Shown piece by piece: positions 21,903-26,936 of a DNA stretch of 64,000 nt. This stretch comes from an uncultured Pseudomonadales bacterium (GTDB lineage: Bacteria > Patescibacteriota > Microgenomatia > UBA1400 > UBA1396), in NCBI GenBank assembly GCA_964511175.1, contig CAZEEI010000004.1, positions 27,401 to 91,400 on the forward strand, written 5' to 3'. Within the stretch, counting starts at the first letter, position 1. Each line of letters begins with the position of its first letter. The position numbers and the translations under genes were made by a program. The notes under the pieces were generated by a model that did no database searches, was not told the DNA's origin, and worked only from the letters and a program-made list of their open reading frames with translations.

Positions 21903-21977
<75 letters not shown>

Positions 21978-22016
21978 CATTTCGATACTTGTAGACAAAT
22001 AATTTTTAAATTGTCT

Positions 22017-22622
22017 TTAATTATCCACACTTTTTAGAGATTCAAACTTCTCCGCAGCTGCATTCATCAAAGGTGCAATTTCAACCACCCTTTCTAGCGG
22101 GTCTTTTAAAACTATATCGAGTGTGTGATTCAACAGTACGAAGTTCGATCCAAGTCGCGTGATGATCTCACGGCGCTTCACATCGCCCCCGTTTTCAAAC
22201 TCCTGACGGGCTTCTCTCACTCACTTCTTCTTAAAAAAATCAGCAAGTGGTGACGGAAGTTGAGGCTGAGGACTTGGCTGGCCAGCAATTCTTAGTATTT
22301 GATCAAGGGTCATGGAAGGTGGCGCAACCACTGGTGCCAATCTAAACACGGATTTAATCTTGTTATTGATCCAATCCCAAGCACTTTTGTTTAAAACACC
22401 ATTAGCTCTCGAGAGATCTACTTTAACAATAAGAAATAGTAATCCAGGATTTCTAACAATAATTCCATCAGCGAGTACTTTTTCTGAAAGATGAGAACTA
22501 ACAATGTAAACGTTGGGCAAGTAATGCCACCAATCTGATATCGGCAGATTAATCATGGTGTCATGTATCTGTTCATCAGTGTAATGTGGCTGCTGGTGGT
22601 TAAAAACAACTAAGTAGTCCAT
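22017..22622 (-). pseudogene. About 201-codon ORF interrupted by a single in-frame TGA (ORFs 22221..22622 and 22017..22220 are contiguous in one frame)
   Basis: The 133-aa ORF ends ...FFKKK-TGA. The very next codon is GTG, which opens the 67-aa ORF in the same frame. It has a Pro-rich linker (PSPQPQLPSP). TGA is a genuine stop elsewhere in the window, so this is a nonsense-interrupted gene or a readthrough candidate. Confidence 0.35.
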
Positions 22623-22624
22623 AA

Positions 22625-22969
22625 CTATTTTTTCTTCTGCACTTCGAGGGGTTGGTAAAGTTCCACATACTCTTGACTAGCAACTTGAGGGTTCTGCTTA
22701 TCACCTAAGAGTTTTATGTCTAGTTTCCTCATTTCTAACGTCTGTCTCTCTGACCAAAGCCTATCTGGCTTGAACACCCATAGTAGAACAAGAACAGTAC
22801 CCAAAACTAATGATGAATACATCCAAATCATTCCAAATCCCATCCAAACAGAGGCAGTGCTGAAAATAACATAAAACCAAATGACTATATATGCAGGACT
22901 GGATCGGGTGACAACTTGCACTAACGCACCAAAGGCTTGTAGGGATAGCTCGTTGTCTGCTTTCTCCAT
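22625..22969 (-). CDS. Small two-TM membrane protein (island gene)
   Basis: 114 aa with two hydrophobic helices (AYIVIWFYVIFSTASVWMGFGMIW / LVLGTVLVLLWVF). AT-rich. Its stop is 2 nt from the next ORF's start. Confidence 0.4.
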   Translation of the reverse strand: MEKADNELSLQAFGALVQVVTRSSPAYIVIWFYVIFSTASVWMGFGMIWMYSSLVLGTVLVLLWVFKPDRLWSERQTLEMRKLDIKLLGDKQNPQVASQEYVELYQPLEVQKKK

Positions 22970-23044
22970 ATGAATGGTATTATTATAGTATCAAACTAAT
23001 CAAAAATATACTTGATACTACACAAGTAAGTTAAATATTACTAG

Positions 23045-23968
23045 GTGAAAGTTTGTATGGCAAACAAAAGGAACTGGTTTATTGGAATTCAAAAAAGAAA
23101 TCCAGATGATGGAAAAGTCTCCTCTATATCACAGCAAAGATCAATCTCTGAAGGTGAAAAGAATAAACTTTCAAGTAACCTTGCTTTGCTAAACGAAGTT
23201 ACACAAGGATCACCCTATCATCGTTTGAATGAAAAGTATGAGGGTTTTAGTCGCCATATAGTGAAAATTATAGAGGACTCAAGAACAAAAAGATTTAATC
23301 CAAAAGATCTAGAGAGCATCTTTGAAAAATTAGACGACTTACTTTCTGCATTTAGAGCTTTTGATGATAAAACTAGCCACAAAATTTCATTAAGATATGG
23401 TAAGCAATCAAAGGAACTCTCCATTTTTAAAGAAGCTTTATCGTTTGAATTTGATAATGTATTTGCATACAGATTGTGTTCCCAGCTTAGAAACTATAGT
23501 CAGCATGCGGGCTCTCCAATAACAAATATAAAATCGCATAGTTACCTTAAAAATGATCAACCAAAATCTACTTTGAGTATCATTATGGATAGTGAGAAAT
23601 TACTAGAAGGCTATTCAAAATGGCAATCCAGAGTAAAAGAGGAGCTTAAAAAAATCAGCGGTGCTATCGATCTGGTACTCATCCTTGATGCATTAATGGC
23701 CTCATGCTCGAGAGCTTATTCTAAGTGTCTTATCAGCCAAGAGAAAGAAATTAATCAAGCTAACCAGGAAGTAATCTCTACTATAGGAGAGCTAAAAAGT
23801 GATGAATTTCCAGCAATAATGGAGTTTATCATATCTGAAAGCAATCCTAAGGAAGAGATACGGCTAAATCTTCAACAAATTAATATGTATGAACTATTGC
23901 AGATTCCAAGCTTGCTTCAGAAAGCACATTTCATCGTAGACTCCACTAGTATGAATAGGCAAAAATAA
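23045..23968 (+). CDS. Hypothetical protein with an R-x4-H (HEPN-like) motif (island cassette gene 1)
   Basis: 307 aa and AT-rich. Motif ...SQLRNYSQHAGSP. Likely start at ATG 23057, which is preceded by AGGTGA. No other recognisable domain. Confidence 0.4.
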   Translation: MKVCMANKRNWFIGIQKRNPDDGKVSSISQQRSISEGEKNKLSSNLALLNEVTQGSPYHRLNEKYEGFSRHIVKIIEDSRTKRFNPKDLESIFEKLDDLLSAFRAFDDKTSHKISLRYGKQSKELSIFKEALSFEFDNVFAYRLCSQLRNYSQHAGSPITNIKSHSYLKNDQPKSTLSIIMDSEKLLEGYSKWQSRVKEELKKISGAIDLVLILDALMASCSRAYSKCLISQEKEINQANQEVISTIGELKSDEFPAIMEFIISESNPKEEIRLNLQQINMYELLQIPSLLQKAHFIVDSTSMNRQK

Positions 23969-23973
23969 ATAAT

Positions 23974-24397
23974 ATGAAAGATCAAATCTTACTTTACCTG
24001 CAAATGTGTGATGCAGAAAAAGTTCAAACTCTGCAGCGGGGCATGAATTACCGGCTAAACCCTGACTACTCGGTTATTCTCATGTCTCAAAGAACAAACG
24101 CCCCATACAAAGTTTTTCGTTTTATTCTTGAGGAGACGGAGATTGGCTTCAAGAATAATCACCTCCATGAGAACGTTCTTAAACCTAGATCAAGAGTCAT
24201 TCCTACTGATGTGAAAAAACAGTTTGGGAAAGAGACGAAGCAGGTGCGTGATTTGTGGAGCCACAGACGAGCTACATTTTGACCATGACTTACCTTATTC
24301 AGGAGGCGACGCGAGCATAAGTGCAAGCAATGTTAAAATCCTCTGTGCAAGACATAATTTAAGCAAGTCAGATAAAATAAGCTATGAATCAAACTAA
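23974..24397 (+). pseudogene. HNH endonuclease, disrupted by a +1 frameshift at an A6 run
   Basis: Frame-1 ORF 23974..24282 (102 aa) continues after a shift at gtgAAAAAAcag (~24214-24219) into frame 2. That frame reads ...RCVICGATDELHFDHDLPYSGGDASISASNVKILCARHNLSKSDKI*, the canonical HNH CxxC...H-x-D-H...N...H-N motif. Frame 2 has no start codon of its own. Confidence 0.55.
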
Positions 24398-25292
24398 TAA
24401 TGATGAACTCTCCTCAATTAAGCCAAGTGAAGAAGGCTTGGCTCTAATGGGTTATGCTTCTGCTCTGAGACATAGATATTGGCCTCACTATACCTGGAAT
24501 ATTCAAACGAAGCAGCTTAAAGATTTCGATAACAACGATAGTTACTTTGCCCAAAATAATATTGATATAAAGCATATAAAAACCACTTTTCCAGATCTAT
24601 TTGACAAAATAAATTCTAGTTTCTATCACTTGCAAGTGCTCAAGGAAAACGAGGAGTTGATAACAGAAGTGGGAAGAAAAATAGCCCAAGCAGGTCAGGC
24701 AGACCTTCCAGCCGGAATGTTAGGGATAGCTGGCATGCTTTACGAACCAATTAATTATGAATATGAAGCTATGTTGGTTACATTAAAAAGTGCAATAGAC
24801 ATAATGGTTACTCTAGTTGCACCAATTTGTAGCTTATCTACTAACGTGGATACTCTTTCTCGACTGCTTAAAGAATCAAGGAAAACTGACAAGCCAAATG
24901 AGTTTCATAAAAAAATGAAAGCACTTTTGAAAGAAGAAAAATTCTTACCACTTTTTGAAGAGTTTCAATGGAACGGAAATACTCGATCTAAAAGAGATCA
25001 TGCGGTACACAGAGGTTCGCTTTCAACAGGAACAATAAATATCCAATACACTTCGAACGCAGATCATATTGGCGTACTAAAATCTAAAGCTGTGCCAGTA
25101 GGCGAAAAAATGACAGATATTCACACAACACCTGATCTTGATCAGTACTGCACATCACTTTTCTATTTAACTTGTGATTTCTTAGTGGATGTATTACAGC
25201 TTGTGGTAAACCGAAATCTAATACGGGGACAAAAAATGAGCATCTACGAACATCAGGTTTCATTGGCTAAAACGAAACAACCGTTGTCGTAA
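24384..25292 (+). CDS. Hypothetical protein with an R-x4-H (HEPN-like) motif (island cassette gene 3)
   Basis: 302 aa and AT-rich. Motif ...NTRSKRDHAVHRGS. Its start overlaps the HNH 3' end. Confidence 0.4.
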   Translation: MNQTNNDELSSIKPSEEGLALMGYASALRHRYWPHYTWNIQTKQLKDFDNNDSYFAQNNIDIKHIKTTFPDLFDKINSSFYHLQVLKENEELITEVGRKIAQAGQADLPAGMLGIAGMLYEPINYEYEAMLVTLKSAIDIMVTLVAPICSLSTNVDTLSRLLKESRKTDKPNEFHKKMKALLKEEKFLPLFEEFQWNGNTRSKRDHAVHRGSLSTGTINIQYTSNADHIGVLKSKAVPVGEKMTDIHTTPDLDQYCTSLFYLTCDFLVDVLQLVVNRNLIRGQKMSIYEHQVSLAKTKQPLS

Positions 25293-25564
25293 ATGGAAGC
25301 AGTAGAAGCATTTTCTTAATTTACAGCTAATGAAACCACTGCATCTCTAGTACAATAGTAGTTAAACAGGGTTTGAATAGAATCTCGAACTCTACCCCAA
25401 GTTTTTTCTTAAGTAATTTTTTGAACTTTAAATACAAGTTGGAATCATTTCGTTAAAATAGTCATATGTTCATTTTAATTAAGTTCTGACTACAACTGTA
25501 TTCCGAAATGTAAGCAGTTTATACATACATTGACTCATTGTAGGTTGTAGGCTACAATTTACAC

Positions 25565-25870
25565 ATGGAAGTTCTGAAAACGGATGCTTTCGACAAATGG
25601 TTAAGAAAATTAAAAGATCGAAAAGCAAAAGCTCGCATCCAAGTTCATTTGAACCGCTTAATTGAGGGCAAATTAGGAAAATTAAAGCCAGTCGGAGAAA
25701 GTGTATTCGAAAAGAAAATCGATTATGGCCCTGGATACAGACTCTACTTTATTAATCACCAAGAAAATGTTGTTGTACTGCTTTGCGGTGGAGATAAATC
25801 AACACAACCAAGAGATATTCAACAGGCAAAAATCATCGCTAAAGAACTAAGAGAACAAATGAAAGGATAA
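25565..25870 (+). CDS. higB: Type II toxin, RelE/ParE superfamily (HigB-like 'addiction module killer protein')
   Basis: 101 aa. ...KAKARIQVHLNRLIEGKLGKLKPVGESVFEKKIDYGPGYRLYF...VVLLCGGDKSTQPRDIQQAKIIA matches the conserved pattern of the HigB-2 / TIGR02683-like toxin. The toxin lies upstream of the antitoxin, as in hig loci. Confidence 0.7.
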   Translation: MEVLKTDAFDKWLRKLKDRKAKARIQVHLNRLIEGKLGKLKPVGESVFEKKIDYGPGYRLYFINHQENVVVLLCGGDKSTQPRDIQQAKIIAKELREQMKG

Positions 25871-25872
25871 AC

Positions 25873-26145
25873 ATGAAACTATCAAAATATAACACCACCG
25901 ATTATTTAAAAACTGATCAAGATATTAAAGAATATCTCAATGCTTCTTTTGAAACAGGAGACAGCAAACTTATCGCCAGGGCATTAGGTGATGTTGCTAA
26001 AATTAAGGGTATGAGTAAGATTTCTAAAGCTACTAAGCTGGATAGAAGTAGTTTATATTACTCTTTAACCGAACAGGGTGATCCCAGACTTAGTACAGTA
26101 ACAAAACTAATCGAAACCTTCGGCTATTCGGTTTCGGTGAATTAA
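25873..26145 (+). CDS. higA: HTH antitoxin (HigA-like 'addiction module antidote protein')
   Basis: 90 aa, starting 3 nt after the toxin stop. HTH region ...GMSKISKATKLDRSSLYYSL... typical of the HigA family. Confidence 0.65.
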   Translation: MKLSKYNTTDYLKTDQDIKEYLNASFETGDSKLIARALGDVAKIKGMSKISKATKLDRSSLYYSLTEQGDPRLSTVTKLIETFGYSVSVN

Positions 26146-26157
26146 AAGAACCAAATT

Positions 26158-26469
26158 ATGGGCGCAATGACCGAAATTAACTCCCTAGTTCGCTTTCCAG
26201 GAGATTTTAATTTTCAGACTCTACAAAAGGGTCTCCTGGTTGATCTAACACTTGAGCGGGAAAGGATTCTGCCGCTGCGCATCGCCTTATTGTATTTTCA
26301 CACCGATTGGAATTTTTTAGGTTACTGCCGCGTTTTATCACTCCGCCAAAGTGAGGGTAAAACTTACCTCAAGGTCGAAGTGTTAACTGTCTTTTCCCAA
26401 GAAGAACAAAAAGTTTACAAAAACAAATTTGTCGAAGCGGGTAGATTCACTGGAGAAGCTAAGTATTAG
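26158..26469 (+). CDS. Hypothetical protein
   Basis: 103-aa ORF following higA. No motif recognised. Confidence 0.3.
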   Translation: MGAMTEINSLVRFPGDFNFQTLQKGLLVDLTLERERILPLRIALLYFHTDWNFLGYCRVLSLRQSEGKTYLKVEVLTVFSQEEQKVYKNKFVEAGRFTGEAKY

Positions 26470-26936
26470 GTTCGGTAAATCTCAACCACTCCCGTGTCGC
26501 AGTGTAAGAAAACCAGTCTAGCTGGACCCTGGTCTAAATCCTCACCCACTATTTTAATGCCAGATTCTTGTAGCTTTTTCCTAACAATTGGTGATTTTCT
26601 CCGACTACCTACTAAAATATACCCCTCCCCAGAGAGGGTCGCTTCAAGATCTTGTAAACCCGAGTCGCCAGAAATATACAGGGCGTGTAATAGGGTATCA
26701 ATCACTTTCTCTGGTCTCATCTCCTCAGGAGCGGTGGAGAATCCGGAAATATGAGCCAACATACCCATCTTTCTACGACGATCGTAAAGAGTAATTACTA
26801 AGCAAGTGCCAACACCATCTGTCCCAATTAAATCGCTTTTTCTGCCAATTTTATAATCATCTTGATCAACAAACTTATATCTTACATGATCGTGAAAACC
26901 ATCAACTGTTCGGAATCTCTCTAAATTTGTACCCAT
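26466..26936 (-). CDS. CheD-fold (glutamine deamidase-like) protein, orphan
   Basis: ...GTDGVGTCLVITLYDRRRKMGMLAHISG... resembles the CheD Cys/His signature (G.C[VI]A[VI].L.D......G.[AM]H.M). No chemotaxis genes are present in the window. Confidence 0.35.
   Translation of the reverse strand: MGTNLERFRTVDGFHDHVRYKFVDQDDYKIGRKSDLIGTDGVGTCLVITLYDRRRKMGMLAHISGFSTAPEEMRPEKVIDTLLHALYISGDSGLQDLEATLSGEGYILVGSRRKSPIVRKKLQESGIKIVGEDLDQGPARLVFLHCDTGVVEIYRT

Follow-up and report, generated by a model that had tools for sequence, protein, structure and literature searches.

Three co-directional genes, called A, B and C here, are found just where the original prediction had read them in the window, by which we mean the whole stretch of 64,000 nucleotides of DNA that was analysed. 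They had been proposed to constitute a single cassette of immunity or addiction, in which two HEPN-like proteins flank an HNH nuclease. They are probably to be understood as a mosaic of single-gene modules that travel separately and meet in a variable island of the defence type, beside a tRNA-His gene. C would then represent a new family within the HEPN superfamily and would probably act as an RNase, A would probably cleave nucleic acids, and B is a decayed copy of a predicted HNH DNase. The trio is not conserved as a multi-gene system across diverged lineages. Judging by the organisms in which homologs occur, the genome is probably patescibacterial.

The island and its genes

Between 22 kb and 26 kb the GC content of the window falls to 33-40%, as against about 50% elsewhere, and this low-GC island holds the features collected in Table 1. 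We looked for traces of its integration and found neither a direct repeat of the 3′ end of tRNA-His nor an integrase or att repeat. A and B are separated by a gap of 5 nt and B and C overlap; a reading of the genes as integron cassettes was dropped upon inspection of this spacing. An attC-type R″ box was not found by eye in the 107-nt tail of C, and there was no integrase among the scanned ORFs near the island. The scan for promoters and terminators gave no excess over shuffled expectation, and repeats of the kind found in type III toxin-antitoxin systems were looked for with no success.

Table 1. Coordinates, in the window, of the island's features
Feature	Position	Strand	Remarks
tRNA-His	21904..21978	+	ARAGORN and Rfam; left boundary of the variable, low-GC island
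133-aa gene	22221..22622	-	divergent from A; found together with A and B in both L001 and L002
114-aa predicted membrane protein (2-TM)	22625..22969	-	divergent from A
Gene A, 303 aa	23057..23968	+	R-N-x3-H family, otherwise unannotated
Gene B, HNH endonuclease pseudogene	23974..24397	+	decayed copy of a widespread 231-aa enzyme
Gene C, 302 aa	24384..25292	+	HEPN-like, invariant R204-[N/D]-x3-H209
107-nt non-coding tail of the C module	25293..25400	+	conserved
HigB/HigA-like toxin-antitoxin pair	25565..26145	+	Gp49 20.5 bits; dnstrm_HI1420 83.7 bits

Scans of IMG/VR with short conserved peptide patterns, which reach close relatives, gave no relative of A, B or C, and tblastn of A against GenBank phages returned zero matches. 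Among plasmids, distant homologs of A are carried by those of Bacillus, pBS32 included, with zero homologs of C, and B was matched via its HNH domain alone.

Protein A had been taken to be 307 aa long and to carry LRNYSQH. The motif is there; the start is most likely the ATG at 23057, preceded by GGTGA, rather than the GTG at 23045, which makes a protein of 303 aa, a length shared by the database copy P0001. The 133-aa gene is 93% identical to its ortholog in L001 (dN/dS 0.04); it gave zero matches in Pfam, PADLOC and PHROGs, as did the L001 ortholog in NCBIfam. The 2-TM gene has an ortholog of 117 aa in L001 and L002 (dN/dS 0.08) and no family match in scans of Pfam, NCBIfam, PADLOC and PHROGs. 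As for the HigB/HigA-like pair, the HigB-like match of which falls under the Gp49 cut-off of 23.9 bits, it is a separate module, a neighbour of C: a HigA-like antitoxin is present in L001 too, but three other genes stand there between antitoxin and C.

Probable separate histories of A, B and C

Among the loci sampled for the A family (58) and the C family (17), pairs formed by A, B and C were found only in the window and in the contigs L001 and L002, which carry identical copies of one version, about 80% identical to that of the window. The intact trio does exist in the L001/L002 lineage, and nowhere else in this sample; outside the immediate lineage none of these loci pairs an A or C homolog with the HNH gene, and the idea of a single three-gene cassette is not supported. 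Within the lineage, a block of five genes (133-aa, 2-TM, A, B and C) is collinear in the window and in L001, with about 80% DNA identity, in two different flanking contexts, so that these genes must have been together for some time. The comparison of L001 with L019 tells how they part. L019 keeps C (76% identity) in a Gabija context common to L001, while A, B and the genes of 133 and 117 aa give way to genes of 226, 189 and 449 aa; homology at the DNA level begins again some 20 nt into C and breaks off 107 nt past its stop codon. We can therefore understand these genes as recombining as separate modules. The tail thus delimited is 82-87% identical between the window, L001 and L019, with 32-47% identity immediately beyond it; it has two predicted hairpins and no match in Rfam.

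The fate of B is of the same nature, as B was inactivated while A and C were conserved (dN/dS about 0.1). B had been described as a frameshifted HNH gene. Its motif is indeed present, and single bases are deleted near 24216 and near 24236; the damage goes well past a mere frameshift, with 282 nt (94 codons) lost at a junction at 24108/24109, by comparison with the intact 231-aa ortholog of L001, and an altered stop. The motif CxxC...HFDH...N...HN is of the beta-beta-alpha-Me type. Matches to Pfam HNH and HNH_5 are at E of about 1e-3, under the gathering score, and those to HNH families of PHROGs and to the HNH region of IscB in NCBIfam reach 3e-11 and 5.8e-6, respectively. The family is very common (6178 matches, about 70% identical across phyla), about 200 times the 31 homologs of C in the same kind of search, and B itself was encountered beside an A or C homolog in the window, L001 and L002 alone. 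B is a dead copy of a common, autonomous HNH DNase of 231 aa, the function of which is predicted. The intact ortholog, with an N-terminal domain of about 165 aa followed by the HNH domain, has the same overall plan as the SRA-HNH enzymes TagI and ScoA3IV and the EVE-HNH enzyme VcaM4I. Unlike them, it has no recognisable SRA, EVE or PUA sensor, and the copy in the window is a pseudogene: the N-terminal 165 aa have no Pfam match and fit no SRA, EVE or PUA model, and PDB sequences gave zero matches to this domain, whether searched with the profile or with the domain by itself (E<=10). A stretch of the ortholog (GMNYR...SVILMS...IEYEGHD) presumably resembles SRA/YDG motifs; dependence on DNA modification is only a lead, since no SRA/EVE/PUA model or solved structure matches.

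It might be argued that C makes a system of two genes with whichever nuclease is directly upstream, here the HNH gene B, C being the conserved sensor, regulator or immunity partner of a swappable effector. This would account for the fact that the co-directional gene upstream, which is 2-24 nt away from C or overlaps it, is very often nuclease-like: a B-type HNH gene in the window and L001, a gene for an HNH_5-type protein of 236 aa in L076, for an ApeA-like HEPN protein in L020 and for the 449-aa protein of L019, with weak matches to SduA_C/PDDEXK_9; distant C homologs in L006-L009 also adjoin a recurrent partner of about 285 aa. We nevertheless consider a two-gene system unlikely. L003 and L078 have only a small HTH-XRE gene upstream of C, and C of L021 has no neighbour on the same strand. 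The breakpoint that separates L019 from L001 falls between the upstream gene and C, and the disproportion between the B and C families, with B dead and C conserved, points the same way. Close spacing may itself be weak evidence, since the carriers of C are mostly Patescibacteria, the genomes of which are small and gene-dense. Finally, a 2026 preprint regards ApeA as an antiviral protein that acts autonomously. The candidate interchangeable partners upstream of C would comprise two HNH kinds, an ApeA-like kind and a PD-(D/E)xK-like kind.

Two families with an invariant arginine and histidine

HEPN domains are defined by a conserved R-x4-6-H motif with a polar residue (N, D or H) after the arginine (PMC3710099). 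The bare motif is at chance level, as R-x4-6-H is present in 31 of the 42 long ORFs of the window and R[NDH]x3H in 7 of them; it is therefore meaningful only through its conservation in the homologs of A and C. In C, which has the expected 302 aa and RSKRDHAVH, residues S202, R204, H209 and G211 are invariant in 31 homologs, down to 31% identity, while N is found at position 205 in at least 90% of them and D in the closest ones. In A, R145 and H150 are invariant and N146 reaches at least 90% in an alignment of 70 homologs, which are 19-47% identical to the protein of the window, save for one ortholog at 82%. Comparison of the window with L001 shows purifying selection on both proteins (dN/dS 0.11 for A, 0.08 for C).

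The original prediction saw a HEPN-like pair, and this is supported for C. Its structural model (pLDDT 88, pTM 0.87) displays, at its core, an up-down bundle of four helices made of two alpha-hairpins, as expected of a HEPN domain, and about 17 HEPN chains are found within the top 60 matches of a fold search. The motif is placed by the model in a short helix (203-209) leading into a loop, then into a beta-hairpin. The model thus supports a HEPN-like core, and with it the placing of C in the HEPN superfamily as a new family. In C, as in ApeA, the AbiD/AbiF-type Abi_2 proteins, HepT and LsoA/RnlA, the R-[N/D]-x3-H is invariant and the arginine is followed by a polar residue; like stand-alone HEPN RNases, C occurs as a single gene within defence islands. 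Unlike the known HEPN RNases, C matches no HEPN family of Pfam, NCBIfam, PADLOC or PDB sequences, and is about 300 aa long, with extra N-terminal helices and a beta-hairpin past the motif; unlike the known HEPN toxins, it has no MNT or other known antitoxin partner. One contig has C directly 3′ of an ApeA-like gene, and hhalign found no relation between the two.

For A, HEPN is at most a candidate fold. Its R-N-x3-H is as invariant as the motif of C. The model of A is confident (pLDDT 95.7), places the motif (145-150) where a helix (136-151) reaches its C-terminal end, and had no convincing match to HEPN or other PDB structures. The HEPN models of Pfam match 0 of the 70 family members, NCBIfam and PADLOC are also blank, and the only match in PHROGs is phrog_30874, of unknown function (1e-9). 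The family is large, with 2423 representative clusters (E<=1e-3). The profile of A gave no usable match in PDB sequences, where those of A, B and C altogether retrieved HNH matches only. As had been supposed, A and C match no known system or family in Pfam, NCBIfam and PADLOC, and PADLOC-DB v2 gave no credible match for the proteins of the window, their L001 orthologs and 101 family members.

The setting, by contrast with the cassette, is what had been predicted, with defence genes abundant around the homologs of A and C. Gabija adjoins the orthologous cassette in L001 and C in L019, and lies near A-family genes in L059 and L063; it is absent from the window, and neither A nor C is a homolog of GajA or GajB, the sole match (E=6e-4) being spurious. 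Around C homologs are also found an ApeA-like HEPN_Apea protein and an SNase, Hachiman with Tsp45I restriction-modification, GmrSD, PycTM, an EcoRI methylase and HepT/MNT. The A family has no conserved neighbour; its surroundings include a TIR protein, restriction-modification genes, transposases and, on a Bacillus plasmid, an ABC-three-component system. An alignment with hhalign of A with a DUF5677 neighbour showed no relation.

It is quite unlikely, in our opinion, that A, C or both are helical-bundle proteins with no nuclease activity (a regulator, a binding protein or a function of mobile elements), the conserved arginine and histidine of which would serve binding or structure. No profile ties A or C to a nuclease family, and catalytically inactive HEPN domains do exist (PMC3710099), which would fit with this idea; an invariant arginine, a polar residue and a histidine at the end of a helix are the signature of active HEPN RNases, and the defence and mobile contexts of both families argue in the same direction.

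C would most likely be a metal-independent RNase, if we go by the established behaviour of HEPN domains. The R-[N/D]-x3-H residues would make the active site, probably across a dimer, and the protein might be kept inactive until infection or stress, when it would cleave RNA as a toxic or abortive-infection effector, moving as a unit of its own with its conserved 107-nt 3′ tail. A may be seen as a stand-alone member of its large family, and is predicted to be, probably, a nucleic-acid-cleaving effector.

MAFFT and hhalign both align the motifs of A and C (LRNYSQHaGsP with KRNYAVHxGSL). Paralogy of the two was considered and homology was not accepted, as BLASTP and hhalign align the motif alone, with a probability of 4-8%. 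We find it quite unlikely that the trio, perhaps together with the 2-TM and 133-aa genes, makes up one lineage-restricted defence or addiction system in which an HNH nuclease works with two HEPN-like proteins: this would suit the tight, collinear spacing of the five genes in two flanking contexts, the purifying selection (dN/dS 0.04-0.11 for the 133-aa gene, the 2-TM gene, A and C) and the aligned motifs, but co-occurrence is restricted to one narrow lineage among the 58 A and 17 C loci, L019 carries C in the absence of A and B, B has three inactivating lesions where the other genes are intact, and the profiles of A and C do not match significantly.

Possible consequences for the immunity of Patescibacteria

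The separate modules of the mosaic may be placed in a wider, speculative picture, which we put forward tentatively and consider rather doubtful as a whole. The C family would be the HEPN-type half of a new two-gene class in Patescibacteria, with interchangeable upstream nucleases and its own 107-nt RNA tail, and the A family would gather widespread, undescribed single-gene anti-phage RNases with a fold distinct from that of classical HEPN proteins.

A first lesson of the mosaic is that a multi-gene system cannot be deduced from genes being closely packed and co-directional in a defence island. Furthermore, if A and C are active R/H RNases involved in defence, two unannotated families would join the HEPN-type effectors, that of A being a large one. 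Both are invisible to Pfam, NCBIfam and PADLOC-DB v2 (2023), and PHROGs is equally blind to them, save for one match of A to a family of unknown function. To our knowledge, the defence repertoire of Patescibacteria is poorly known, and these families would, if this is true, give a first handle on the immunity genes of these organisms.

Gene order and decay of the HNH gene

The three co-directional reading frames A, B (the HNH endonuclease) and C are all present in the window with the motifs originally quoted (LRNYSQH in A, RSKRDHAVH in C), in DNA of 33–40% GC as against roughly 50% genome-wide. Neither an att-type repeat nor an integrase was found at the tRNA-His island. Gene A probably starts at ATG 23057, because a GGTGA stands 7 nt before it and P0001, the copy of the protein in public data, is 303 aa long. 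At about 80% DNA identity, the same five genes recur in the public contig L001: first a 133-aa gene and the gene of a 117-aa membrane protein, which diverge from A, and after them A, B and C, with B encoding an intact 231-aa protein. With respect to this copy, window B is missing 282 nt (94 codons, junction 24108/24109), has lost a single base at two places, near 24216 and near 24236, and has an altered stop codon; it is therefore a pseudogene. The gene had been described as frameshifted; the damage goes beyond that. As a protein, window B would be a dead DNase. Between the window and L001, dN/dS is 0.11 for A, 0.08 for C, 0.08 for the membrane protein and 0.04 for the 133-aa gene.

The 133-aa and 114-aa (2-TM) genes, without any family match, accompany A, B and C in both L001 and L002 under strong purifying selection, and are missing from a further contig, L019. 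L001 conserves the HigA-like antitoxin together with about 250 nt on its upstream side, but three metabolic-type genes separate them from C; the HigB/HigA-like pair would be one more independent module beside A, B and C.

Coordinates of features in the window and in related public contigs
Feature	Location	Strand	Remarks
tRNA-His	window 21904-21978		exactly at left border of the 33–40% GC island (22000-26500)
133-aa gene and 114-aa 2-TM gene	window 22221-22969	-	divergent from A
Gene A ORF	window 23045-23968	+	307 aa if counted from GTG
Gene B, HNH frame split in two	window 23974-24282 plus 24224-24397	+	
Gene C ORF	window 24384-25292	+	302 aa
HigB/HigA-like toxin-antitoxin pair	window 25565-26145		HigB-like: Gp49, below cut-off; HigA-like: dnstrm_HI1420, 83.7 bits
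Gabija	L001 1419-4950		complete; GajA with OLD-type TOPRIM, GajB UvrD-type helicase, HTH upstream
Gabija	L019 803-4337		complete; GajA, GajB, upstream HTH
Small XRE-type HTH gene upstream of C homolog	L003 7769-7996; L004 6505-6762; L078 5766-5993		immediately upstream in L003 and L078
~285-aa protein beside 270-aa C homolog	L006 7145-7987; L007 8782-9642; L008 974-1837; L009 6102-7010		hydrophobic N-terminal segment in L007 and L008
A-family 279-aa hypothetical protein WP_009968507.1	L072 4821-5660		B. subtilis NCIB 3610 plasmid pBS32, between integrase region and phage-like terminase genes

Association of the three families

The families differ greatly in size. A has 7 homologs by word-indexed search and 2423 representative clusters by exhaustive profile search, B has 6178 homologs and C has 31, those located in genomes coming mostly from Patescibacteria MAGs (Saccharimonadales, Roizmanbacteria, Moraniibacteriota). 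A profile search for all three genes through 58 A-family loci and 17 C-family loci never found two of them together except in the window and in L001 and L002, the last two having identical cassette genes, and no neighbour of A was conserved among the A-family loci compared. The original prediction, a novel three-gene defence cassette with HEPN-like A and C around an HNH nuclease, is not supported: among these loci, outside one narrow lineage, the homologs do not stand beside the HNH gene, the very outcome it had named as contradicting it, and L019 keeps C without A and B.

In L001 the five-gene block directly adjoins a complete Gabija system. L019, the most telling case, shares HTH-GajA-GajB (82% identity) and C (83%) with L001; in between, three different genes, of 226, 189 and 449 aa, occupy the position of the 133-aa and 117-aa genes, A and B. 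Homology restarts about 20 nt inside C and ends 107 nt past its stop, so that C is a module recombining separately. The window, L001 and L019 share 82–87% identity over this 107-nt tail (25293-25400), and right beyond it identity drops to 32–47%; unlike the tail, synonymous sites of the three contigs are saturated (dS of C about 1.5). Two hairpins are predicted in the tail, which has no match in Rfam and might serve as a 3′ UTR, terminator or sRNA, or else mark where recombination ended. A tiny ORF, MEAVEAFS, begins at the C stop codon.

Gene C and its neighbours

Gene C has no match in Pfam, NCBIfam, PADLOC, PHROGs or PDB sequences. A bare R-x4-6-H string, found in 31 of 42 long window ORFs (R[NDH]x3H in 7), is uninformative; the motif argument, weak as first put, gains weight once conservation of the arginine and histidine is considered. 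In an alignment of 31 C sequences S202, R204, H209 and G211 are invariant, as are the YEPIxYEYE and SFYH blocks, and position 205 is N (or D). HEPN domains are defined by a four-helix up-down core and by R-x4-6-H, with a polar residue right after the arginine, placed where helix-3 ends and running into a loop (PMC3710099). The C model, for which the HEPN structures 1ufb, 2hsb, HepT toxin 5yep and sacsin HEPN are listed, places the motif within a short helix (203–209), then a loop and a beta-hairpin. C is consistent with the published definition, and its reading as HEPN-like is supported. The C homolog of the Saccharimonadales contig L012 (1815-2700) falls into two ORFs, which probably makes it one more decayed copy.

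The setting of C homologs in defence islands is borne out by their neighbours, among which are known genes of defence and conflict. L001 and L019 have Gabija, L020 has an SNase as well as an ApeA-like HEPN_Apea protein, L074 has a Tsp45I R-M system together with Hachiman (HamA and a helicase), L080 has GmrSD, PycTM and an EcoRI-type methylase, and L021 has HepT/MNT. The gene directly upstream varies, being a B-type HNH, an HNH_5-type protein unrelated to B (L076), an ApeA-like protein or a protein with weak SduA_C/PDDEXK matches. It is therefore worth keeping alive the idea that C works in pairs with swappable nucleases encoded directly upstream. Yet C also occurs without any nuclease, in L021 without any same-strand upstream gene, ApeA and the B family are each autonomous, and B is dead in the window; for these reasons we favour simple stacking in islands. 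The small XRE-type HTH gene upstream of some homologs suggests a regulator or antitoxin without counterpart at window C, and the ~285-aa family, always adjoining the distant 270-aa C homologs, upstream or downstream, may be a real partner of that subgroup.

Homologs of B from Patescibacteria, Chloroflexota, Thermodesulfobacteriota and Ignavibacteriota share about 70% identity, an unusually high conservation for distant phyla, although the N-terminal domain of some 165 aa preceding the C-terminal HNH in intact B has no detectable family in scans including Pfam, nor a PDB match. TagI and ScoA3IV are SRA-HNH enzymes, and the stretch GMNYR...SVILMS...IEYEGHD presumably resembles an SRA/YDG sensor, a lead that no test in this analysis supports.

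The A family and proposed roles

None of 70 diverse A-family members matches Pfam, and none matches NCBIfam or PADLOC; window A matches one PHROG, of unknown function (1e-9). R145 and H150 are invariant, and N146, R100, D104, D133 and Y138-R139 at least 90% conserved. As to kinship between A and C, BLASTP, hhalign and MAFFT align only LRNYSQHaGsP/KRNYAVHxGSL, at 4–8% probability, and it is not demonstrable. The neighbours of A-family genes are mixed, with genes of defence and mobility scattered among them. Gabija-type genes occur at three independent loci: L001, and L059 and L063, where they lie within 3 kb of distant A-family genes. The others include a TIR protein, DNA methylases, HaeIII, transposases, a type I R subunit and ATPases of the OLD/AriA type. 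Distant homologs are carried by Bacillus plasmids, one on pBS32 near a phage-like terminase module, another beside an ABC-three-component system. Scans of IMG/VR seeded on short conserved peptide patterns gave nothing closely related to any of the three proteins, and tblastn of A against GenBank phages no match.

Reasoning from the chemistry of the HEPN family (PMC3710099) and from island context, C would act on its own as a metal-independent RNase of the HEPN type, and upon activation of the protein the R/N(D)/H triad would cut RNA, with growth arrest or abortive infection as the outcome. A, possibly HEPN-like too, would be an autonomous effector from a larger family, distinct from that of C, in which this catalytic signature recurs, and the family member on pBS32, a well-studied element, offers a tractable host for testing that family. 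Of lasting interest are A and C as two unannotated families of candidate effectors, one of the two large.
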